A stretch of 64,000 bases of DNA from Escherichia coli (GTDB taxonomy: Bacteria; Pseudomonadota; Gammaproteobacteria; Enterobacterales; Enterobacteriaceae), in the NCBI RefSeq assembly GCF_009931435.1, contig NZ_CP043414.1, one strand, 5' to 3'. Made by a program: the position numbers and the translations under genes. This document shows positions 1-64,000 of the stretch, piece after piece. The notes beneath the pieces were generated by a model that was not told the origin of the DNA, did not search any database, and saw nothing but the letters and a program-made list of their open reading frames with translations. The stretch's first letter is position 1; the number at the start of each line of letters is the position of its first letter.

Positions 1-1
1 G

Positions 2-388
2 CGTTTCAGCCTGGTAGAAGTGACCCAAAGCCCGTCTCTGCTGTTGCAAGGGATGGTGGGTTCGCAGATGCCGATTGCTGTCTCTCACGGCGAAGGGCGC
101 GTGGAAGTGCGCGATGCGGCGCATCTGGCGGCACTGGAAAGCAAAGGGCTGGTGGCACTGCGCTATGTCGATAACTTTGGTAAAGTCACCGAAACCTACC
201 CGGCTAACCCGAACGGTTCTCCGAATGGTATTACGGCGGTCACGACTGAAAGTGGTCGAGTCACCATTATGATGCCGCACCCGGAACGTGTTTTCCGTAC
301 TGTCAGTAACTCCTGGTATCCGGAAAACTGGGGCGAGGATGGCCCATGGATGCGTATTTTCCGCAATGCGCGTAAGCAGTTGGGGTAA
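2..388 (+). CDS. purL: Phosphoribosylformylglycinamidine synthase, C-terminal fragment (5' end outside window)
   Basis: Open frame from window edge to stop at 388; the C-terminal sequence is recognised as PurL, and K-12 synteny (purL next to glmY-glrK) supports it. Confidence 0.85.
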
Positions 389-397
389 GTCGTAAAA

Positions 398-452
398 CTA
401 TTGGTTTTGCTGCCCGGATGTGGCATTCACGCCGCATCCGGCATTAAACGCC
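398..452. repeat. REP-like extragenic palindrome
   Basis: Imperfect inverted repeat cccggatgtggc ... gccgcatccggc resembling the REP consensus GCCGGATGCGGCGT. Confidence 0.45.
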
Positions 453-465
453 GACCACTATCATA

Positions 466-491
466 AGCTCCCAGCTCCGGGAGCTTTTTTT
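466..491 (+). terminator. Rho-independent terminator downstream of purL
   Basis: GC stem agctccc / gggagct with a short loop, followed by a run of seven T. Confidence 0.6.
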
Positions 492-492
492 G

Positions 493-722
493 TGTCTGTA
501 AATCACGACAATGGGTGGTTTACCGTGTCGCTTTTTGGCGACATTTAATTGATTGATTTTATTTGGATCTAATAAATTTATCTTAAGGTGTCTCTTTTTA
601 GCGACACAATGGCTGATTTACAGCCAAATAGCGAAGAAGTCATAAATCCATCAAAACAACGTATAATCAGTACGTTACCAAACTATTTTATTTATTGGCA
701 CAGTTACTGCATAATAGTCATC
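493..722 (+). promoter_or_regulatory. glmY upstream control region: three TGTC-N10-GACA sites and a sigma54-type promoter
   Basis: TGTC-N10-GACA read at about 493-510, 526-543 and 589-606; TGGCAC-N5-CTGCA at about 696-711 fits the -24/-12 sigma54 consensus, with CATAAT overlapping as a possible sigma70 -10. Confidence 0.7.
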
Positions 723-906
723 AGTGGCTCATTCACCGACTTATGTCAGCCCCTTCGGGACGTGCTACATAAAATTCGAATGACGCACAACAAGGTGCCT
801 GCCGTCCAACTTCTGATATCAGCTTAGCTATATCAACCCTCGGGCGAAACGTCGAGTTAGGCACCGCCTTATTCCATAACAAAGCCGGGTCATTCCCGGC
901 TTTGTT
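723..906 (+). ncRNA. glmY: GlmY small RNA
   Basis: Sequence starting AGTGGCTCATTCACCGACTTATGTCAGCCCCTTCGGGACG matches the recalled GlmY 5' end; it ends in a hairpin (agccggg tcatt cccggct) plus T-run at about 884-907, immediately upstream of glrK. Confidence 0.75.
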
Positions 907-964
907 GTATCTGAACTTCCCCTCGGTTAGCATCAGGCTATTCGCGTCTGACGAGAGTAACACC

Positions 965-2392
965 TTGAAACGCTGGCCCGTTTTTCCCCGCTCATTACGA
1001 CAACTGGTAATGCTGGCATTTTTGCTGATTCTGCTACCCCTGTTGGTGCTGGCATGGCAAGCCTGGCAAAGCCTGAATGCGCTTAGCGATCAGGCGGCGC
1101 TGGTTAACCGTACTACGCTTATTGATGCCCGGCGCAGTGAAGCGATGACCAACGCGGCGCTGGAGATGGAGCGTAGCTACCGTCAGTATTGCGTGCTGGA
1201 TGACCCAACCCTGGCGAAGGTTTATCAAAGCCAGCGCAAGCGTTATAGCGAAATGCTCGATGCCCACGCAGGCGTACTGCCGGACGATAAACTTTACCAG
1301 GCATTGCGTCAGGACTTGAACAATCTGGCTCAACTTCAGTGTAACAACAGCGGTCCCGATGCTGCCGCCGCCGCGCGTCTGGAAGCCTTTGCCAGCGCCA
1401 ATACCGAAATGGTACAGGCCACGCGCACAGTGGTGTTCTCTCGTGGGCAGCAGCTTCAGCGTGAAATCGCCGAACGTGGGCAATATTTTGGTTGGCAATC
1501 GCTGGTGTTATTTCTGGTAAGTCTGGTGATGGTACTGCTCTTCACGCGGATGATTATCGGCCCGGTAAAAAATATTGAACGGATGATCAACCGTCTGGGG
1601 GAAGGGCGTTCTCTGGGCAATAGCGTTTCGTTCAGTGGCCCGAGTGAGTTACGCTCGGTTGGGCAACGTATTCTTTGGTTAAGTGAGCGCCTGTCATGGC
1701 TGGAATCCCAGCGCCATCAATTCTTAAGACATTTATCTCATGAATTAAAAACCCCGCTGGCGAGTATGCGCGAGGGCACTGAATTACTGGCTGACCAGGT
1801 TGTCGGGCCGCTTACGCCCGAGCAAAAAGAGGTGGTGAGCATCCTTGATAGCAGCAGCCGCAATTTGCAAAAACTGATCGAACAACTGCTTGATTACAAC
1901 CGTAAACAGGCGGACGGCGCGGTGGAACTGGAGAGTGTAGAGTTGGCACCGCTGGTGGAAATGGTGGTTTCTGCTCATAGCCTGCCCGCACGGGCTAAAA
2001 TGATGCATACCGACGTCGATCTCAAAGCAACTGCTTGCCTGGCGGAGCCAATGCTGCTGATGAGCGTACTGGATAATCTTTACTCCAATGCGGTGCACTA
2101 CGGGGCTGAATCCGGTAACATTTGCCTTCGCAGCAGTTTACATGGCGCGCGGGTTTATATTGATGTCATCAATACAGGCACACCCATTCCGCAAGAGGAA
2201 CGCGCCATGATCTTCGAACCCTTTTTTCAGGGAAGCCACCAGCGAAAAGGGGCGGTGAAGGGCAGCGGTCTGGGATTAAGCATTGCCAGGGATTGTATTC
2301 GCCGTATGCAGGGGGAACTGTATCTGGTCGACGAGAGCGGGCAAGAGGTTTGCTTCCGCATTGAATTACCGTCGTCGAAAAACACGAAATAA
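965..2392 (+). CDS. glrK: Sensor histidine kinase GlrK (QseE)
   Basis: ORF track 902..2392; the internal TTG start at 965 gives 475 aa beginning KRWPVFPRSL as in K-12 GlrK. Contains the HELKTPL histidine-kinase H-box. Confidence 0.85.
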   Translation: MKRWPVFPRSLRQLVMLAFLLILLPLLVLAWQAWQSLNALSDQAALVNRTTLIDARRSEAMTNAALEMERSYRQYCVLDDPTLAKVYQSQRKRYSEMLDAHAGVLPDDKLYQALRQDLNNLAQLQCNNSGPDAAAAARLEAFASANTEMVQATRTVVFSRGQQLQREIAERGQYFGWQSLVLFLVSLVMVLLFTRMIIGPVKNIERMINRLGEGRSLGNSVSFSGPSELRSVGQRILWLSERLSWLESQRHQFLRHLSHELKTPLASMREGTELLADQVVGPLTPEQKEVVSILDSSSRNLQKLIEQLLDYNRKQADGAVELESVELAPLVEMVVSAHSLPARAKMMHTDVDLKATACLAEPMLLMSVLDNLYSNAVHYGAESGNICLRSSLHGARVYIDVINTGTPIPQEERAMIFEPFFQGSHQRKGAVKGSGLGLSIARDCIRRMQGELYLVDESGQEVCFRIELPSSKNTK

Positions 2393-2556
2393 TGTTAAGA
2401 GCCTATCCCATCAGGCTATTTTATTTGCCAGTTTGGCCTCGTGCAGTGCTCGAAATCCTTACGTACTACGTGTACGCTCCGGTTTCTCCGCGCTGTCCAT
2501 GTCCAAACTGCCTGCAACAATTACGCCCACTGGGATAGGTTTTAAGTCTGGTGAAT

Positions 2557-3270
2557 ATGCGACACATTTTTCAACGATTATTGCCCCGACGGCTATGGCT
2601 GGCAGGGCTGCCATGTCTGGCATTGCTGGGTTGCGTGCAGAGTCACAATAAGCCAGCTATTGATGCGCCAGCAGAAGAAAAAATTCCGGTTTATCAACTG
2701 GCTGACTATCTTTCTACTGAATGCAGCGACATCTGGGCACTGCAAGGTAAGTCAACCGAAACCAATCCGCTTTACTGGCTGCGGGCGATGGATTGTGCTG
2801 AACGTTTAATGCCTGCGCAGTCGCGTCAGCAAGCCCGCCAATATGACGACGGCAGCTGGCAAAATATCTTCAAACAAGGGATTTTGCTCGCTGACGCCAA
2901 AATTACGCCTTATGAGCGCCGCCAGCTGGTCGCGCGCATTGATGCGTTAAGTACCGAGATCCCGGCACAGGTTCGCCCACTGTATCAACTCTGGCGCGAA
3001 GGTCAGGCGCTGCAACTGCAACTGGCGGAAGAGCGCCAACGCTACAGCAAACTCCAGCAGTCCAGCGACAGCGAACTGGATACTTTACGCCAGCAACATC
3101 ACGTTCTACAGCAGCAACTGGAACTCACTACCCGCAAGCTGGAAAACCTGACCGATATTGAACGCCAGCTCTCGACTCGCAAACCGGCTGGCAATTTCTC
3201 GCCGGATACGCCGCACGAGAGTGAAAAGCCCGCGCCATCTACCCATGAGGTCACTCCTGATGAGCCATAA
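2557..3270 (+). CDS. qseG: Outer-membrane lipoprotein QseG (YfhG)
   Basis: 237 aa from the ATG at 2557; N-terminal signal with LLGC lipobox and a coiled-coil-like Q-rich C-terminus; located between glrK and glrR. Confidence 0.8.
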   Translation: MRHIFQRLLPRRLWLAGLPCLALLGCVQSHNKPAIDAPAEEKIPVYQLADYLSTECSDIWALQGKSTETNPLYWLRAMDCAERLMPAQSRQQARQYDDGSWQNIFKQGILLADAKITPYERRQLVARIDALSTEIPAQVRPLYQLWREGQALQLQLAEERQRYSKLQQSSDSELDTLRQQHHVLQQQLELTTRKLENLTDIERQLSTRKPAGNFSPDTPHESEKPAPSTHEVTPDEP

Positions 3271-4594
3271 ACCTGCGCATTTATTACTGGTCGATGACGA
3301 TCCAGGATTGCTGAAACTGCTTGGTCTGCGTCTGACCAGCGAAGGTTATAGCGTGGTTACGGCGGAAAGTGGAGCTGAAGGATTGCGGATACTGAATCGT
3401 GAAAAAGTAGATTTAGTCATCAGCGACCTGCGGATGGATGAAATGGATGGTATGCAACTGTTTGCTGAAATCCAGAAAGTGCAGCCAGGTATGCCAGTAA
3501 TCATCCTCACCGCGCATGGCTCCATTCCCGATGCGGTTGCCGCGACACAGCAGGGCGTGTTCAGTTTCCTCACCAAGCCCGTCGATAAAGACGCGCTGTA
3601 TCAGGCAATTGATGATGCGCTGGAACAATCCGCGCCAACCACCGACGAACGCTGGCGCGAGGCGATTGTCACCCGCAGCCCGCTGATGCTGCGTTTGCTG
3701 GAACAGGCGAGGCTGGTGGCGCAGTCAGATGTTAGCGTTTTGATTAACGGTCAGAGCGGTACCGGGAAAGAGATTTTTGCCCAGGCGATCCACAACGCCA
3801 GCCCGCGCAACAGCAAGCCGTTTATTGCTATTAACTGTGGCGCATTGCCCGAGCAATTACTGGAGTCCGAGCTGTTTGGTCATGCGCGCGGTGCGTTTAC
3901 TGGCGCTGTCAGCAATCGCGAAGGTTTATTCCAGGCGGCGGAAGGCGGTACGCTGTTTCTCGATGAGATTGGCGACATGCCCGCACCGTTGCAGGTCAAA
4001 CTGCTACGCGTGTTGCAGGAGCGCAAAGTGCGCCCGCTGGGCAGCAACCGCGATATTGATATCGACGTGCGGATTATTTCCGCCACTCACCGTGACCTGC
4101 CAAAGGCGATGGCGCGCGGGGAATTCCGTGAAGATCTCTACTATCGCCTCAACGTTGTCAGTCTGAAAATTCCGGCATTGGCGGAGCGCACAGAAGACAT
4201 TCCGCTACTGGCAAACCACTTATTGCGCCAGGCGGCAGAGCGACATAAACCGTTTGTCCGCGCATTCTCCACCGATGCAATGAAACGCCTGATGACCGCG
4301 AGCTGGCCGGGCAACGTGCGCCAGTTGGTCAACGTGATTGAACAGTGCGTGGCGCTAACATCATCTCCGGTGATTAGTGATGCGTTAGTCGAGCAGGCGC
4401 TGGAGGGCGAAAATACGGCTCTGCCAACCTTTGTTGAGGCGCGTAATCAGTTTGAACTCAACTACTTGCGTAAGCTGCTGCAAATCACCAAAGGTAATGT
4501 CACCCACGCGGCGAGAATGGCGGGGCGCAACCGGACAGAATTTTATAAACTGCTTTCCCGACACGAGCTGGATGCAAACGATTTCAAGGAATGA
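3260..4594 (+). CDS. glrR: Sigma54-dependent response regulator GlrR (QseF)
   Basis: 444 aa from [14 protein letters not shown]; receiver domain, AAA+ sigma54-activator domain (GAFTGA motif) and C-terminal HTH; GAGG RBS upstream; start overlaps the qseG 3' end. Confidence 0.9.
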
Positions 4595-4618
4595 ATTGGC
4601 GTTATGTGTTACGTTTAG

Positions 4619-4993
<375 letters not shown>

Positions 4994-5003
4994 ACCGCGT
5001 CAG

Positions 5004-5031
5004 GGTTGCCGGATGTCTCCATCCGGCAACC
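5004..5031. terminator. Hairpin between convergent glnB and hmp (possible bidirectional terminator)
   Basis: 11-bp stem ggttgccggat / atccggcaacc with a 6-nt loop in the 43-bp gap between the two stops; no strong T-run on either side. Confidence 0.4.
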
Positions 5032-5036
5032 TCAAA

Positions 5037-6227
5037 TCACAGCACTTTATGCGGGCCAAAGCATTCGTAATGAATGTTTTCCTGTTTCACACCCAGGTCC
5101 ACTAACTGTTTCGCGGCAAACTGCATGAAGCCAACCGGGCCGCAGAGATAGAACTGCATTGTCGGATCGCTGAACGCACCTTCCAGTTTGCTCAAATCCA
5201 TCAGACCTTCACTATCAAACTGACCTTTAGCGCGATCGGCTTCGCTCGGCTGACGATACCAGGTGTGCGCGGTAAAGCGTGGCAGTGCTTGCCCCAGTTC
5301 CTTAACTTCATCGGCAAAGGCATGAACATCGCCATTTTCTGCCGCATGGAACCAGTTTACCTGAGCGCTATGACCTGCTTTTGCCAGCGTGTCGAGCATT
5401 GCCAGCATTGGTGTTTGACCGACACCGGCAGAGATTAACGTCACCGGCGTGTCATCTGCGATAGCCATAAAGAAATCACCTGCCGGAGCGACCAGTTTCA
5501 CGACATCGCCAACGTTGGCGTGATTGTGTAACCAGTTTGATACCTGCCCACCCTCTTCGCGTTTCACTGCAATACGATAGCCTTTGCCATCCGGTTTGCG
5601 CGTCAAAGAGTACTGACGAATTTCCTGATGTGGGAAACCTTCCGGTTTCAGCCAGACGCCGAGATATTGCCCTGGACGGTATTCCGCCACTGCGCCGCCG
5701 TCCACCGGCTCAAGTTCGAAACTGGTGATAAGCGTGCTGCGCGGTGTTTTAGCTACAATGCGGAAATCGCGAGTACCTTCCCAGCCACCGGCTTTGCTGG
5801 CGTTTTCGTTATAGATTTCCGCCTCGCGATTAATAAATACATTAGCCAGTACGCCATAGGCTTTACCCCACGCGTCCAGTACTTCCTGGCCCGGGCTGAA
5901 CATTTCGTCCAGCGTCGCCAACAGGTGTTCACCGACGATATTGTATTGTTCCGGTTTGATCTGGAAGCTGGTGTGTTTCTGAGCGATTTTTTCTACCGCT
6001 GGTAACAGCGCAGGCAGGTTTTCAATATTGCTGGCGTAGGCGGCAATAGCGTTAAACAGGGCTTCACGTTGATCGCCATTACGCTGGTTACTCATGTTAA
6101 AAATTTCTTTGAGTTCTGGGTTATGAGTAAACATACGGTCGTAGAAATGGGCGGTTAACTTTGGCCCTGTTTCCACCAGTAAAGGGATGGTGGCTTTTAC
6201 TGTAGCGATGGTTTGAGCGTCAAGCAT
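5037..6227 (-). CDS. hmp: Flavohemoglobin (nitric oxide dioxygenase)
   Basis: 396 aa from [15 protein letters not shown]; globin domain plus FAD/NAD-binding reductase domain; the ORF track extends 7 codons further upstream. Confidence 0.95.
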
Positions 6228-6233
6228 ATGGTC

Positions 6234-6290
6234 TTCCTTTTTTTGCATCTTAATTGATGTATCTCAAATGCATCTTATAAAAAATAGCCC
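6234..6290 (-). promoter_or_regulatory. hmp promoter with NsrR-type operator
   Basis: Minus strand reads AAGATGCATTTGAGATACATCAATTAAGATGCAAAAAAAGGAAGACCAT-ATG, with an inverted repeat AAGATGCAT / ATACATC and a further AAGATGC half-site. Confidence 0.6.
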
Positions 6291-30390: not shown

Positions 30391-30507
30391 TAAAGATAAC
30401 AAGATATTAGAATCAGGCCGGGGCGTATCGCGCTCCGTAAACACGGTCGTACATCCAGCCGGTAGCCTGGTTCCTTGCATTGAGTGATGTACGGAGTTTA
30501 TAGAGCA

Positions 30508-37106: not shown

Positions 37107-37883
37107 ATGTCCGAAACAAAAAACGAACTTGAAGACCTGCTGGAAAAAGCAGCAACCGAACCGGCGCACCGCCCGGCCTTTTTCCGTACTCTACTGGAAT
37201 CCACTGTCTGGGTACCAGGTACGGCGGCGCAGGGCGAGGCAGTGGCTGAAGATAGCGCGCTTGATTTACAGCACTGGGAAAAAGAAGATGGCACCAGCGT
37301 TATTCCTTTTTTTACCTCGTTAGAAGCACTTCAACAGGCGGTTGAAGACGAACAGGCATTTGTCGTAATGCCCGTTCGCACATTGTTTGAGATGACCCTT
37401 GGCGAAACGCTCTTCCTTAATGCCAAACTGCCAACCGGTAAAGAATTTATGCCGCGTGAAATCAGTTTGCTGATTGGTGAAGAAGGGAATCCGCTGAGCA
37501 GTCAGGAAGTACTGGAAGGCGGTGAATCGCTGATATTATCGGAGGTCGCAGAGCCGCCAGCACAAATGATTGATTCACTTACCACCTTATTTAAAACCAT
37601 TAAGCCGGTGAAGCGTGCTTTTATTTGTTCAATTAAAGAGAACGAAGAGGCACAGCCTAATTTACTTATTGGCATTGAAGCTGATGGCGATATCGAAGAA
37701 ATTATTCAGGCGGCGGGAAGTGTAGCGACCGATACATTACCTGGTGATGAACCAATCGATATTTGCCAGGTGAAAAAAGGGGAAAAAGGAATTAGCCACT
37801 TTATTACCGAACATATTGCGCCATTCTATGAACGTCGCTGGGGTGGATTCCTGCGTGATTTTAAACAAAATCGGATAATTTAA
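37107..37883 (+). CDS. sseB: Serine sensitivity enhancing protein SseB
   Basis: 258 aa from MSETKNELEDLLEKAA; K-12 synteny. Confidence 0.8.
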   Translation: MSETKNELEDLLEKAATEPAHRPAFFRTLLESTVWVPGTAAQGEAVAEDSALDLQHWEKEDGTSVIPFFTSLEALQQAVEDEQAFVVMPVRTLFEMTLGETLFLNAKLPTGKEFMPREISLLIGEEGNPLSSQEVLEGGESLILSEVAEPPAQMIDSLTTLFKTIKPVKRAFICSIKENEEAQPNLLIGIEADGDIEEIIQAAGSVATDTLPGDEPIDICQVKKGEKGISHFITEHIAPFYERRWGGFLRDFKQNRII

Positions 37884-37889
37884 AATATG

Positions 37890-38372
37890 CCGCCCAAAGG
37901 GCGGCATTCGGGCTTACTTGCTGTTCTGAAGGTTGTTAACCATCAGTAAATTGTTGCCGGAGGGACTCCGGTTATTATTTACCTCGGTTAACAGCGCACC
38001 AGAAACAATAAGTACGATACAGAAGTACCGTATCTTCATTGTGCGGTCCATGCGAAGACCGCATCACGACAGCACCACTGGCGATATTGCCGCGATAGCA
38101 AGCGCTGTGGGGTGCCTGCATTTACGGTCATGGAACATCCTTTCCTAAAGCCAGCGCCCGTTTGCGAGACGGCGAAAAGGGCCGTCACGAATAATACTCT
38201 CATATTTGAATAATTACTCTATTTATTATCTTGACTTGGCCAGGCATAAAAGAGAGTATTTCAACACTGTGGGGTGCCTGCGTTGCTCCGGCAACACAAG
38301 TCAACCTGCTGGAAAGGCCGCGAACCAGACCAGCAATAAAAAACCGCCAAATTCGGCGGTTTTTTATTGCCT
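37890..38372. ncRNA. ryfA: sseB-sseA intergenic region corresponding to the K-12 ryfA sRNA locus (strand and boundaries not resolved)
   Basis: About 490 bp non-coding gap in the K-12 ryfA position; hairpins near both ends (about 37887-37915 and 38340-38372) and the motif ctgtggggtgcctgc present twice (about 38104 and 38268). Confidence 0.35.
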
Positions 38373-42400: not shown

Positions 42401-44400
42401 CGATTGGTGATTTTAACGGTGAATTGCGCGTCATGGCACAAGCATGGACGGCAGATGATTTCGGTAGCAACGAAAGCAAAGTGGTTGTTGCCGCACCGGT
42501 GATAGCAGAACTGAATATGCCGCGCTTTATGGCCAGCGGTGACACCTCACGTCTGACGCTGGATATCACTAATCTTACCGATAAACCGCAAAAACTGAAC
42601 GTTGCTCTGACCGCCAGTGGCTTGCTTGAACTGGTTAGCGATTCACCCGCAGCCGTTGAATTAGCGCCGGGCGTGCGAACCACGCTGTTTATCCCGGTGC
42701 GAGCATTGCCGGGTTATGGTGATGGTGAAATTCAGGCCACTATTAGCGGGTTAGCGTTACCGGGCGAAACCGCTGCCGATCAGCATAAGCAGTGGAAAAT
42801 GGGTGTCCGTCCGGCATTTCCGGCACAAACCGTCAATTACGGTACGGCGTTGCAGCCTGGTGAGACATGGGCGATTCCAGCTGATGGATTGCAAAACTTC
42901 TCGCCTGTTACGCTGGAAGGGCAATTGTTGTTGAGCGGCAAACCACCGTTGAATATTGCACGTTATATCAAAGAGTTAAAAGCGTATCCGTACGGTTGTC
43001 TGGAGCAAACCGCCAGCGGCCTGTTCCCGTCACTTTACACCAACGCAGCCCAACTGCAGGCGTTGGGAATCAAAGGCGACAGTGATGAGAAGCGCCGTAC
43101 GGCAGTCGATATCGGCATTTCTCGTTTACTGCAAATGCAACGTGATAACGGTGGCTTTGCGCTGTGGGATAAAAACGGTGATGAAGAGTACTGGCTGACG
43201 GCTTACGTGATGGATTTTCTGGTCCGCGCAGGTGAGCAGGGTTACAGCGTGCCGACAGAAGCCATTAACCGGGGGAATGAGCGTCTACTGCGCTATTTAC
43301 AAGATCCGGGCATGATGTCGATTCCGTATGCGGATAATCTCAAAGCCAGTAAATTCGCCGTACAGTCTTACGCTGCGCTGGTGCTGGCCCGTCAGCAAAA
43401 GGCACCGCTGGGTGCGCTGCGTGAAATCTGGGAGCATCGTGCCGATGCTGCGTCTGGATTACCGCTGCTGCAACTTGGCGTTGCGCTGAAAACCATGGGC
43501 GATGCAACGCGTGGTGAAGAAGCGATTGTGCTGGCGCTGAAAACGCCGCGCAATAGTGATGAGCGGATATGGCTGGGTGATTACGGAAGTCCACTGCGCG
43601 ACAACGCATTGATGCTCTCCTTGCTGGAAGAGAACAAATTGCTACCCGATGAGCAGTACCCTCTGCTGAACACACTTTCGCAGCAGGCGTTCGGTGAACG
43701 CTGGTTATCAACTCAGGAAAGTAACGCGCTGTTCCTGGCTGCCCGTACGATTCAGGATTTACCGGGCAAATGGCAGGCGCAAACGTCTTTCTCTGCTGAG
43801 CTGCTGACAGGTGAGAAAGCGCAAACCAGCAATCTGAATAGCGATCAACTTGCCACCTTACAGGTGACCAACAGTGGCGATCAGCCGTTATGGCTGCGTG
43901 TGGATGCCAGCGGATATCCGCAATCCGCCCCTTTACCGGCGAGCAATGTGCTGCAAATCGAGCGCCATATTCTTGGCACTGACGGTAAGAGCAAATCGCT
44001 GGATTCGTTACGTAGCGGCGATCTGGTACTGGTCTGGTTGCAGGTCAAAGCCAGTAACAGCGTGCCGGATGCTTTGGTCGTTGATTTACTGCCTGCTGGC
44101 CTGGAACTGGAAAACCAGAACCTGGCTAACGGCAGCGCCAGCCTGGAGCAAAGTGGTAGCGAAGTGCAAAACCTACTCAGTCAAATGCAACAAGCGAACA
44201 TTAAGCATATTGAGTTTCGTGACGATCGCTTTGTGGCGGCGGTTGCCGTTGATGAATATCAACCAGTCACGCTGGTGTATCTGGCGCGGGCGGTAACGCC
44301 GGGAACATACAATGTTCCGCAACCAATGGTGGAATCGATGTATGTTCCCCACTGGCGGGCGACTGGCGCGGCTGAAGATCTGTTGATTGTCAGACCGTAA
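39433..44400 (+). CDS. yfhM: Alpha-2-macroglobulin family lipoprotein
   Basis: 1655 aa; lipoprotein signal LALAGC; thioester motif CLEQ within YGCLEQTASG. Confidence 0.9.
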   Translation: MKKLRVAACMLMLALAGCDNDNNDNAPTAVKKDAPSEVTKAASSENASSAKLSAPERQKLAQQSAGKALTLLDLSEVQLDGAATLVLTFSIPLDPDQDFSRVIHVVDKKSGKVDGAWELSDNLKELRLRHLEPKRDLIVTIGKEVKALNNATFSKDYEKTITTRDIQPSVGFASRGSLLPGKVIEGLPVMALNVNNVDVNFFRVKPESLPAFISQWEYRNSLANWQSDKLLQMADLVYTGRFDLNPARNTREKLLLPLGDIKPLQQAGVYLAVMNQAGRYDYSNPATLFTLSDIGVSAHRYHNRLDIFTQSLENGAAQQGVEVSLLNEKGQTLTQATSDAQGHVQLENDKNAALLLARKDGQTTLLDLKLPALDLAEFNIAGAPGYNKQFFMFGPRDLYRPGETVILNGLLRDADGKALPDQPIKLDVIKPDGQVLRSVVSQPENGLYHFTWPLDSNAATGMWHIRANTGDNQYRMWDFHVEDFMPERMALNLTGEKTPLTPKDEVKFSVVGYYLYGAPANGNTLQGQLFLRPLREAVSALPGFEFGDIAAENLSRTLDEVQLTLDDKGRGEVSTESQWKETHSPLQVIFQGSLLESGGRPVTRRAEQAIWPADALPGIRPQFASKSVYDYRTDSTVKQPIVDEGSNAAFDIVYSDAQGVKKAVSGLQVRLIRERRDYYWNWSEDEGWQSQFDQKDLIENEQTLDLQADETGKVSFPVEWGAYRLEVKAPNEAVSSVRFWAGYSWQDNSDGSGAVRPDRVTLKLDKASYRPGDTIKLHIAAPTAGKGYAMVESSEGPLWWQEIDVPAQGLDLTIPVDKTWNRHDLYLSTLVVRPGDKSRSATPKRAVGVLHLPLGDENRRLDLALETPAKIRPNQPLTVKIKASNKNGEMPKQVNVLVSAVDSGVLNITDYVTPDPWQAFFGQKRYGADIYDIYGQVIEGQGRLAALRFGGDGDELKRGGKPPVNHVNIVAQQALPVTLNEQGEGTVTLPIGDFNGELRVMAQAWTADDFGSNESKVVVAAPVIAELNMPRFMASGDTSRLTLDITNLTDKPQKLNVALTASGLLELVSDSPAAVELAPGVRTTLFIPVRALPGYGDGEIQATISGLALPGETAADQHKQWKMGVRPAFPAQTVNYGTALQPGETWAIPADGLQNFSPVTLEGQLLLSGKPPLNIARYIKELKAYPYGCLEQTASGLFPSLYTNAAQLQALGIKGDSDEKRRTAVDIGISRLLQMQRDNGGFALWDKNGDEEYWLTAYVMDFLVRAGEQGYSVPTEAINRGNERLLRYLQDPGMMSIPYADNLKASKFAVQSYAALVLARQQKAPLGALREIWEHRADAASGLPLLQLGVALKTMGDATRGEEAIVLALKTPRNSDERIWLGDYGSPLRDNALMLSLLEENKLLPDEQYPLLNTLSQQAFGERWLSTQESNALFLAARTIQDLPGKWQAQTSFSAELLTGEKAQTSNLNSDQLATLQVTNSGDQPLWLRVDASGYPQSAPLPASNVLQIERHILGTDGKSKSLDSLRSGDLVLVWLQVKASNSVPDALVVDLLPAGLELENQNLANGSASLEQSGSEVQNLLSQMQQANIKHIEFRDDRFVAAVAVDEYQPVTLVYLARAVTPGTYNVPQPMVESMYVPHWRATGAAEDLLIVRP

Positions 44401-49921: not shown

Positions 49922-51040
49922 ATGCATAACCAGGCTCCAATTCAACGTAGAAAATCAACACGTATTTACGTTGGGAATGTGCCGATTGGCGATGGTGCCC
50001 CCATCGCCGTACAGTCCATGACCAATACGCGTACGACAGACGTCGAAGCTACGGTCAATCAAATTAAGGCGCTGGAACGTGTTGGCGCTGATATCGTCCG
50101 TGTCTCCGTACCGACGATGGACGCGGCAGAAGCGTTCAAGCTCATCAAACAACAGGTTAACGTGCCGCTGGTGGCTGACATCCACTTCGACTATCGCATT
50201 GCGCTGAAAGTAGCGGAATACGGCGTCGATTGTCTGCGTATTAACCCTGGCAATATCGGCAATGAAGAACGCATCCGCATGGTGGTTGACTGTGCGCGCG
50301 ATAAAAACATTCCGATCCGTATTGGCGTTAACGCTGGATCGCTGGAAAAAGATCTGCAAGAAAAGTATGGCGAACCGACGCCGCAGGCGTTGCTGGAATC
50401 TGCCATGCGTCATGTTGATCATCTCGATCGCCTGAACTTCGATCAGTTCAAAGTCAGCGTGAAAGCGTCTGACGTCTTCCTCGCTGTTGAGTCTTATCGT
50501 TTGCTGGCAAAACAGATCGATCAACCGCTGCATCTTGGGATCACCGAAGCGGGTGGCGCACGTAGTGGGGCAGTAAAATCTGCCATTGGTTTAGGCCTGC
50601 TGCTGTCTGAAGGCATCGGCGACACGCTGCGCGTATCGCTGGCGGCCGATCCGGTCGAAGAGATCAAAGTCGGTTTCGATATTTTGAAATCGCTGCGTAT
50701 CCGTTCGCGCGGGATCAACTTCATCGCCTGCCCGACCTGTTCGCGTCAGGAGTTTGACGTTATCGGTACGGTTAACGCCCTGGAGCAACGCCTGGAAGAT
50801 ATCATCACCCCGATGGACGTTTCGATTATCGGCTGCGTGGTGAATGGACCAGGTGAGGCGCTGGTTTCTACACTCGGCGTCACCGGCGGCAACAAGAAAA
50901 GCGGCCTCTATGAAGATGGCGTGCGCAAAGACCGTCTGGACAACAACGATATGATCGACCAGCTGGAAGCGCGCATTCGTGCGAAAGCCAGCCAACTGGA
51001 TGAAGCGCGTCGAATTGACGTTCAGCAGGTTGAAAAATAA
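49922..51040 (+). CDS. ispG: 4-hydroxy-3-methylbut-2-en-1-yl diphosphate synthase
   Basis: 372 aa; C-terminal [4Fe-4S] Cys motif CPTCSR ... GCVVNGPGE. Confidence 0.95.
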
Positions 51041-51150
51041 TAACGTGATGGGAAGCGCCTCGCTTCCCGTGTATGATTGAACCCGCATGGCTCCCGAAAT
51101 ATTGAGGGGCGCGTTGAGGGTTCATTTTTATATTCAGAAAGAGAATAAAC

Positions 51151-62600: not shown

Positions 62601-64000
62601 TAACGGCGCACAGGCCATCGGCGGCGATACGCCGGTTTACGTCAGTTGCCTGACGACGGCGAACAAACCTGCCAGCAGCATTACGCTGGATGTGGTTGAT
62701 AACGCACAGTGGGCTGCCGGAAATAACGCGGCGAAGCTGAAAAAAGGCGAAACGCTACGGGTTAAGGTAACGGTAAAAGATGCGCAGGGTAATCCGCTCA
62801 CGGATATGCCATTTAAACTGAGTCGCGGAGACGGTTATACCCGCACGGGCGAAAAACATATTGCCGGTAGTGGCGATGCGCTGGTGGCACCGGTGGTGAT
62901 TAACAGTGGGCTGGCGGATGAAACGACGTTGAACGACACCGCGGGATTTTATACTGCCATGACCGGTAGCGACGGCAGCAAAATCCTCAATATTACCCGC
63001 CCGGATACTCACGGCACCAAAACGGCGCTGACGGCGACGTTGTATTCCGATCCAACAAAAAAAGACAGCCTGGATACAATCTTTACTGTGGTCACCAGCC
63101 CGGATAGTAGCAAAGCGAAAATGTGGGGGCATATGCCGGAAACGGTGACGGCTGCGGACGGTACGGTATTTAAACGCCCGCTGTTGTTGAAGGAACTGGC
63201 CTATCAGACTGGGCGAACATCGACGTCTGAAGACAATGAAAACTGGGCGTTGTTTAACATTAATTATGCGAGTTCTTCCACGACGTATAGTGGCTGTGGA
63301 ACCAACTATATTCCGACTCAAGCCGGTCTGACGTCACTGTTTGCTAATAATGCGGGCAACACCATGAAAACCGTGCAGGGCTGGCCGGTGGCAACACGCT
63401 ATTTGTCCAACACGTCCGACAACGGCAGCATGGAGCAGCGTAACTACAAGGCGGTAGATCTCAGCAATGGCACGAGTGCGGCAGTGTCATCAACGGCGCT
63501 GCAACTGCTGACCTGCCAGACCACGCCGGTAACCACGGTGGGCCAAATTCTGCTGGAAGCGGCAGATCCGGCGACGCTGGATACCACCTATAACGTGGTA
63601 AAAGCGAAAAAAGGCGAAGAATCCGTGGTGCGCGTCACCACCAAAGATACGCAAGGCAACCTGGTGGGCAATACGGCATTTATCCTGACGCGTGCCAACA
63701 GCGTGAGTCGGGCTAACGCATCAGCAACCGCGAGCGTGGGCGCGCTGACGGTGACGGATGCTTGGGGAAATACGCGAAATAATTTCCAGTCGACGAGTGA
63801 AACGATTTACGGCGTGACTGGTGCAGACGGGTCAACGACATTTACCCTGAAACAGGATAACAGTACCGGGTTAAGAACCGATCTCACGGCAAAACTGGAT
63901 ACGTCCAGCAGCGTCAAGGCGACGCTACCGGTGGTCTTTACTGTCGTGACCAGCCCGGATTCGCCAAAAGCGAATTTTTGGGGACATATGGCCGAAACGG
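59677..64000 (+). CDS. ratA: Giant modular secreted/surface protein, RatA/RatB-like (5' partial; continues past window end)
   Basis: Single open frame with no stop from about 59677 to 64000 (at least 1441 codons), not in the ORF track because it has no in-window stop; signal peptide; repeated modules with the motif [VI][VI]FT..TSPD......WGHM. Confidence 0.75.
60500..64000 (+). repeat. Tandem protein-coding modules within ratA (period about 804-855 nt)
   Basis: Anchor motif starts at about 60622, 61426, 62230, 63076 and 63931, giving 268, 268, 282 and 285 aa spacing; flanking residues diverge, so the duplication is old. Confidence 0.65.

Follow-up and report, generated by a model that had tools for sequence, protein, structure and literature searches.

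The stretch of DNA analysed here (64,000 nucleotides, referred to as the window) carries near its upstream end the gene order purL-glmY-glrK-qseG-glrR-glnB-hmp, which is also found at the orthologous locus of Escherichia coli K-12. The C-terminus of PurL ends at position 388. An 18-bp REP-like segment at 425-442, upstream of the control region described below, is listed among the differences from K-12. A terminator scan located the intrinsic terminator of purL on the plus strand at 465-492, with the stem AAGCTCCC/GGGAGCTT followed by a run of T residues; it directly adjoins the first activator box of glmY and forms the upstream boundary of the glmY control region. Immediately downstream of glmY, as the initial annotation had proposed, lie the genes of the two-component system GlrK/GlrR and of the lipoprotein QseG, in the order glrK-qseG-glrR (965-4594). 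They are followed by glnB (4655-4993) and, on the opposite strand, by hmp (5037-6248). The A+T content of the region was 66%.

The window showed 94.8% identity to K-12 MG1655 over the 6 kb compared, and at least its first 5970 positions were identical to E. coli strain 2020CK-00188. Since only 8 of 5,426 complete E. coli genomes reached at least 99% identity in this region, we consider that it belongs to a divergent lineage. The segment 493-906 almost certainly corresponds to glmY and its enhancer-dependent promoter in such a lineage.

In E. coli K-12, GlrR (QseF) binds to three TGTCN10GACA motifs that lie over 100 bp upstream of glmY and activates a sigma-54 promoter (PMC3045617, PMC6075780). 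Three exact copies of TGTC-N10-GACA were present on the plus strand of the window, as previously annotated: ABS1 at 493-510 (TGTCTGTAAATCACGACA), ABS2 at 526-543 (TGTCGCTTTTTGGCGACA) and ABS3 at 589-606 (TGTCTCTTTTTAGCGACA), which correspond to positions -230 to -213, -197 to -180 and -134 to -117, respectively, relative to the GlmY start. The initial annotation had placed them 90-230 bp upstream of the promoter, a range that mixes two reference points: the interval of -230 to -117 from +1 is equivalent to 90-203 bp from the -24 element. ABS1 and ABS2 are 33 bp apart, centre to centre. Alignment with MG1655 showed that ABS1 and ABS3 are identical in both strains, that ABS2 differs in one spacer base (T instead of C at 535), and that all 24 half-site bases of the three boxes are the same. 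These data support the assignment of the three boxes as predicted homologues of the characterised K-12 GlrR sites, among which ABS2 and ABS3 are reported to be essential, ABS1 being dispensable (PMC3045617). In E. albertii, GACA is changed to GACG in all three boxes.

TGTC-N10-GACA occurred four times in the 64 kb, compared to 0.83 matches expected, and four matches were reached in none of 100 shuffles. Three of the four fall inside 114 bp, a cluster whose probability of arising by chance, calculated from the shuffle rate, is about 3e-5 per window. The fourth match, at 63404-63421, was considered as a further GlrR target and rejected as a chance match, as it lies inside the coding sequence of a large adhesin.

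The sigma-54 promoter was found on the plus strand at 696-711 (TGGCACAGTTACTGCA; TGGCAC-N5-CTGCA), spanning positions -27 to -12, with the GG dinucleotide at 697-698 and the GC dinucleotide at 709-710. Alignment with MG1655 revealed no difference in the -24/-12 element, over its entire length, or in the +1 region; the C in the -12 region that replaces the consensus T (CTGCA vs TTGCA) is present in K-12 as well. The -24/-12 pattern alone was not enriched in the 64-kb window (2 matches with at most one mismatch vs 2.0 expected); because the motif by itself does not exceed chance, its weight comes from position and conservation. A second sigma-54-like site on the minus strand (43952-43967) lies inside the yfhM coding sequence and was discarded as a chance match. 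Dependence of the glmY promoter on sigma-54 and GlrR has been demonstrated in K-12 (PMC3045617, PMC6075780), where the sigma-54 promoter provides most glmY expression and expression drops four- to five-fold in glrR or ihf mutants (PMC3045617). The published evidence for dependence on rpoN, glrR and ihf and for a start at the mapped +1 covers Salmonella and Yersinia in addition to K-12 (PMC3045617). The alignment supports the view that the promoter at 696-711 is the homologue of the K-12 element, with a predicted transcription start at 723 that is transferred by homology.

A sigma-70 promoter which overlaps the glmY sigma-54 promoter and shares its start nucleotide has CATAAT as its -10 hexamer (PMC3045617). 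The original mapping of both glmY promoters is attributed to Reichenbach et al. (2009) in PMC3045617 and PMC6075780, the accounts through which we refer to that study. In the window, CATAAT is located on the plus strand at 710-715 (-13 to -8) and overlaps the -12 element. The candidate -35 hexamer, TTTATT at 687-692, would be separated from it by a 17-bp spacer and matches three of six consensus positions, vs two of six in K-12, the difference being an A at position 690 where K-12 has a C. A generic sigma-70 promoter scan did not find the overlapping glmY promoter.

[quoted passage not shown] Perfect matches to this consensus were present between ABS2 and ABS3 on the minus strand at 546-558 (AATCAATCAATTA; -177 to -165), and between ABS3 and the promoter on the plus strand at 665-677 (AATCAGTACGTTA; -58 to -46). 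The consensus cores of both sites are identical to those of K-12; the N4 segment of the distal site contains two substitutions, and the proximal site is part of a block which is identical in K-12. We infer that 546-558 and 665-677 are the published IHF sites 1 and 2, respectively, as predicted from their match to the consensus. An alternative location of site 2 at about 606-618 on the minus strand, adjoining ABS3, failed to match the consensus with at most one mismatch; 665-677 was chosen because it is a perfect match and conserved. Both IHF sites, as well as the CATAAT hexamer, the 3' processing of GlmY and a separate qseEGF sigma-70 promoter, add to what had been noted previously for this locus.

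The predicted glmY primary transcript corresponds to positions 723-906 of the plus strand (184 nucleotides) and starts with AGTGGCTCATTC. The start at 723 proposed by the initial annotation is in agreement with two lines of evidence: the match to the Rfam GlmY model RF00128, which covers 723-870 and all of the model (positions 1-163 of 163) with 145.3 bits vs a gathering threshold of 33, and the annotated ends of MG1655 glmY (b4441), which project onto 723 and 906. GlmY is synthesised as a 184-nucleotide primary transcript whose 3' end is trimmed to give the active form of 148 nucleotides, and it sequesters RapZ, so that GlmZ is protected and glmS is activated (PMC4152352). Nucleotide +148 corresponds to position 870 of the window, which is also the end of the Rfam match. 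Folding of the RNA gave -64.2 kcal/mol (z = -4.95). Compared to K-12, GlmY contains four substitutions (776, 824, 839 and 891; 2.2%), all of them at unpaired positions (P = 0.02); in the central stem-loop only one loop base differs (824). An open reading frame for 79 amino acids with a GTG start (588-827), which runs across the promoter and GlmY, was rejected as a mechanical reading frame over a non-coding RNA gene.

The intrinsic terminator of GlmY occupies 878-908 on the plus strand. Its core stem (GCCGGG/CCCGGC, 884-889/895-900) encloses the loop TCATT (890-894) and is followed by the tail TTTGTTGT (901-908), consistent with the terminator previously placed at about 884-907, and folding extended the terminal hairpin to 12 bp (878-906). 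The sole difference from K-12 is at position 891 in the loop. A generic terminator scan found the purL terminator alone and missed that of GlmY, most likely because maximal extension of the stem consumes the T-tract. Given that the generic scans were uninformative on the GlmY terminator and on the weak sigma-70 promoter, folding and the literature were used instead.

On the plus strand, glrK (qseE; 965-2392) encodes a sensor histidine kinase of 475 amino acids with a TTG start, according to the RefSeq annotation of strain 2020CK-00188; qseG (2557-3270) encodes an outer-membrane lipoprotein that matched the NCBIfam equivalog NF007997 with 357.7 bits (cut-off 234); and glrR (qseF; 3260-4594) encodes a sigma-54-dependent response regulator of 444 amino acids that matched the equivalog NF011695 with 980.6 bits (cut-off 763). 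[quoted passage not shown] Amino-acid identity to the K-12 proteins was 98.9% for GlrK, 97.5% for QseG and 99.3% for GlrR. GlrK matched NCBIfam histidine-kinase families, in all cases below the cut-offs of models for other kinases; NCBIfam holds no GlrK-specific model, and hence the assignment of this protein rests on its identity to K-12 GlrK and on RefSeq naming. QseG is required for GlrK/GlrR activity (PMC6075780).

[quoted passage not shown] A candidate for this promoter was located on the plus strand of the window at 905-940, with putative hexamers TTGTAT (-35; 905-910) and TAGCAT (-10; 928-933) and a probable start at about A940. Alignment with K-12 gave 100% identity over 892-975.

The control region (491-722, 232 bp) differs from that of K-12 by 24 substitutions (10.3%). 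We defined 57 motif positions, comprising the three boxes, the consensus cores of the two IHF sites, the -24/-12 element and CATAAT, and none of the 24 substitutions fell within them (hypergeometric P = 7.6e-4). Twelve of the substitutions were found in the linker between ABS3 and the promoter (607-690). This pattern shows purifying selection acting on the architecture in a lineage that has diverged by about 5% from K-12.

We also analyzed conservation across genera. One genome per species was scanned for the conserved 3' pattern of GlmY, the promoter not being used in the selection, and 96 loci were retrieved that were followed on the same strand by a GlrK homologue. The 92 loci with enough upstream DNA, all from other Enterobacterales and each differing in sequence from the window, were scored. 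GG-N10-GC at -26/-14 from the GlmY 5' end was present in all 92 loci, and at least three boxes with no more than one mismatch each were found in 85 of them; in the remaining seven, ABS3 carries two mismatches. Among the 85, the spacing between ABS2 and ABS3 was 63 bp in 84 loci and that between ABS1 and ABS2 was 31-33 bp in every case. Between ABS2 and ABS3, 65 of the 92 loci had a perfect match to the IHF consensus, and 21 had a perfect proximal one, with the ATCA and GTTA cores of site 2 kept across genera. The per-position conservation profile peaked at the box half-sites, TTAATTGATTGATT (IHF site 1), ATCA...GTTA (IHF site 2), TGGCAC...TGCA and the 5' end of the RNA, and was low between them.

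CATAAT was found in half of the scored loci (46/92), belonging to Escherichia, Citrobacter, Enterobacter, Klebsiella and relatives; Serratia and Yersinia carry CATTAT and similar hexamers in its place. [quoted passage not shown] Two controls were included. Second matches in Serratia proved to be the paralogue glmZ (RF00083, 169-176 bits), which has the same sigma-54 and box architecture with spacings of 32 and 63 bp, and comparable architecture was absent from 11 chance-match loci in unrelated phyla. The 92 species-level loci extend a published comparison of 39 genomes, and the comparative additions are the invariant GG-N10-GC, the nearly constant spacing of 63 bp from box 2 to box 3, and the variable distance between box 3 and the promoter.

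The elements described above are present in the window at defined positions, they are clustered and conserved, the RNA is GlmY, and the genes for GlrK, QseG and GlrR are intact. By homology with K-12, GlrR binding, the dependence on sigma-54, IHF and QseG, the start shared by both promoters, the processing of the RNA and its role as a RapZ decoy would be carried over to this locus. Following the K-12 literature, GlrK (QseE), aided by QseG, would phosphorylate GlrR (QseF) on Asp56, and phosphorylated GlrR would occupy the boxes observed at -230, -197 and -134. IHF, whose requirement is likewise taken from the literature and whose sites are seen here at -177 and -58, would bend at one or both of them the linker, with an A+T content of 66-82%. 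The bend would let the AAA+ oligomer of GlrR contact the closed complex of sigma-54 RNA polymerase on TGGCAC-N5-CTGCA, and ATP hydrolysis by GlrR would open this complex for transcription from A723, a start transferred by alignment. As described in the literature, the weak sigma-70 promoter would drive basal transcription that begins at the same nucleotide, and would compete with sigma-54 for the overlapping site. The 184-nucleotide transcript would end at the 878-908 hairpin and be trimmed to about 148 nucleotides, and processed GlmY would then serve as a decoy for RapZ, the adaptor of RNase E, sparing GlmZ and allowing activation of glmS translation, again as reported.

The initial annotation had described the locus as a compact, self-contained regulatory module. 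"Self-contained" is an overstatement, because sigma-54 (rpoN), IHF (ihfA, ihfB), RapZ, GlmZ and glmS are encoded outside the module and outside the window, and because qseEGF, to judge from K-12, is not controlled by the module that GlrK/GlrR regulate. The description would be accurate if glmY and qseEGF formed one transcription unit, in which read-through of the GlmY terminator placed glrK-qseG-glrR under the control of GlrR and sigma-54 and created positive autoregulation. The short distance between the 3' end of GlmY (906) and the start of glrK (965), 58 bp, would be compatible with this arrangement, as would the overlap of the candidate qseE -35 hexamer with the T-tract of the GlmY terminator, and read-through coupling of glmY to qseEGF has been reported for Proteus. 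However, the K-12 qseEGF genes have their own mapped sigma-70 promoter and lack autoregulation (PMC6075780), a behaviour that should transfer to the window because 892-975 is 100% identical, and the GlmY terminator has a strong hairpin of 12 bp ahead of its T-tract. We thus regard a single transcription unit as unlikely.

A functional departure from K-12 could also reside in the changes outside the motifs. The substitutions in 607-690, the base at 690 and that in the ABS2 spacer might shift the balance between sigma-54 and sigma-70 or the geometry of the IHF-dependent loop, resulting in another set-point of glmY expression, or read-through might couple qseEGF to GlrR. We give little credence to a departure of either kind.

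Still less probable is that the sigma-54/GlrR apparatus is vestigial in this lineage and that glmY is transcribed essentially from the overlapping sigma-70 promoter alone, paralleling glmZ of Escherichia. The sigma-54 promoter of glmZ has indeed been replaced by a sigma-70 promoter in Escherichia and Klebsiella (PMC3045617), CATAAT is present in the window, and A690 slightly improves the -35 hexamer compared to K-12. Nevertheless, every motif base has been kept despite 10% divergence of the surrounding DNA (P = 7.6e-4), GlrK, QseG and GlrR are intact and share at least 97% identity with their K-12 counterparts, and glmY expression in K-12 comes mostly from the sigma-54 promoter, all of which favour an enhancer-dependent promoter that would still be used. 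Finally, despite the 66% A+T of the region and the roughly two -24/-12 matches (at most one mismatch) expected per window, the idea that AT-rich intergenic DNA produced the boxes and the -24/-12 element by chance can be practically dismissed, given that three palindromic boxes, each an exact 8-base match, fall within 114 bp (about 3e-5 per window) and that their positions and spacing are kept in 85-92 of 92 loci from many genera.

The module formed by glmY, GlrR, sigma-54 and IHF is already known from experiments in E. coli K-12, Salmonella and Yersinia, and the locus was recognised as a known system from the outset; alignment with MG1655 bore this out element by element. K-12 glmY (Göpel et al., 2011, PMC3045617) has exactly the same half-sites, IHF cores, -24/-12 element, CATAAT and +1 region, and the distances of -230, -197, -134 and -27 are equal. 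The locus is therefore of little weight as a discovery; it is useful as a positive control, in which a real enhancer-dependent promoter was recovered at its exact coordinates by reading the sequence without tools.

The glmY and glmZ promoters of Salmonella, Yersinia and Serratia (PMC3045617, groups I and II) resemble that in the window in having three boxes with spacings of 31-33 and 63 bp, an IHF site that separates box 2 from box 3, and GG-N10-GC at a constant distance from +1. In Yersinia, Serratia, Dickeya and Pectobacterium, by contrast, CATAAT is replaced and box 3 sits 17-38 bp further from the promoter than it does here; in these genera glmZ also has this architecture, whereas Escherichia glmZ has a sigma-70 promoter only. 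The sigma-54 promoter of E. coli rpoE, a target gene outside the window, is served by the same activator, QseF/GlrR, through similar upstream activating sequences (PMC6075780).

The system can also be compared with NtrC and glnAp2. Like NtrC, GlrR is a bacterial enhancer-binding protein composed of a receiver, an AAA+ domain with GAFTGA and a helix-turn-helix, and both systems rely on palindromic sites located over 100 bp upstream of the promoter and on DNA looping; GlrR reached 407 bits with the NtrC model, a score under the cut-off of that model. Unlike glnAp2, glmY has three sites of the TGTC-N10-GACA type and a strict requirement for IHF, its sigma-54 promoter is accompanied by a sigma-70 promoter with the same start, and its product is a small RNA.

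The window comes from a divergent lineage labelled E. coli. Comparison of region 1-6062 with strain MG1655 (K-12) gave a nucleotide identity of 94.8% over 6 kb, and identities of at least 99% across 380-970 were found in only 8 of 5,426 complete genomes. Strain 2020CK-00188, isolated from a human rectal swab in the USA, was 100% identical to the window region compared.

At the upstream edge of the control region, the T-run of the purL terminator (465-492) abuts the first base of ABS1 (493), the promoter-distal GlrR box, with no spacer, and therefore the purL terminator and the glmY enhancer are contiguous. The terminator sequence itself is not conserved among the genera compared. Between the purL stop codon and this terminator lies a REP-like palindrome, GCCCGGATGTGGCATTCACGCCGCATCCGGC (413-445), and alignment with MG1655 showed that its central 18 bp (425-442) are extra in the window and missing from K-12.

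Across 92 glmY loci (L003-L122), the spacing between ABS2 and ABS3 was fixed at 63 bp, and ABS3 was separated from the promoter by a distance that varied stepwise (about 107, 125, 134 and 145 bp). ABS3 carried one mismatch, typically TGTTG..., in most genera other than Escherichia, and 48 of the 85 loci with at least three boxes showed the mismatch pattern 0,0,1 for ABS1, ABS2 and ABS3, respectively.

In the locus of Escherichia albertii NBRC 107761 (L005), GACG replaces GACA at the end of all three GlrR boxes, ABS3 starts with AGTC and the -24 element of the promoter reads TGGCAT; no perfect IHF consensus was found in the glmY upstream region of this strain. Because the change is identical in the three boxes, the sequence hints that the replacement of GACA by GACG may co-vary with the recognition helix of GlrR.

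Five Serratia spp. loci (L019, L053, L073, L075 and L080), which were the second matches to the GlmY 3' pattern, are glmZ (RF00083, 169-176 bits). They carry a TGGCAC-N5-GTGCA promoter and TGTC-N10-GACA boxes with spacings of 32 and 63 bp, and tRNA/RtT arrays adjoin these loci.

Downstream of glmY, TTGTAT (905-910) is likely the -35 element of the sigma-70 promoter of qseEGF (candidate at 905-940). This hexamer shares bases with the T-tract of the GlmY terminator. Alignment of 892-975 with K-12 gave 100% identity over the whole segment, despite the diverged flanks.

At about 56.3-64.0 kb, the annotation of the identical strain shows der and a small zinc-ribbon gene, followed by genes for SinH (an intimin-like inverse autotransporter), for a member of the SinI family and for a very large adhesion-domain protein. 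K-12 probably lacks these genes at the corresponding place. The window also contains other known RNA elements, namely sroE (51040-51131, plus strand), the iscRS stability element (30397-30506, plus strand) and ryfA (37882-38185, minus strand), for which the annotation of the identical strain gives the small toxin TimP as the product.
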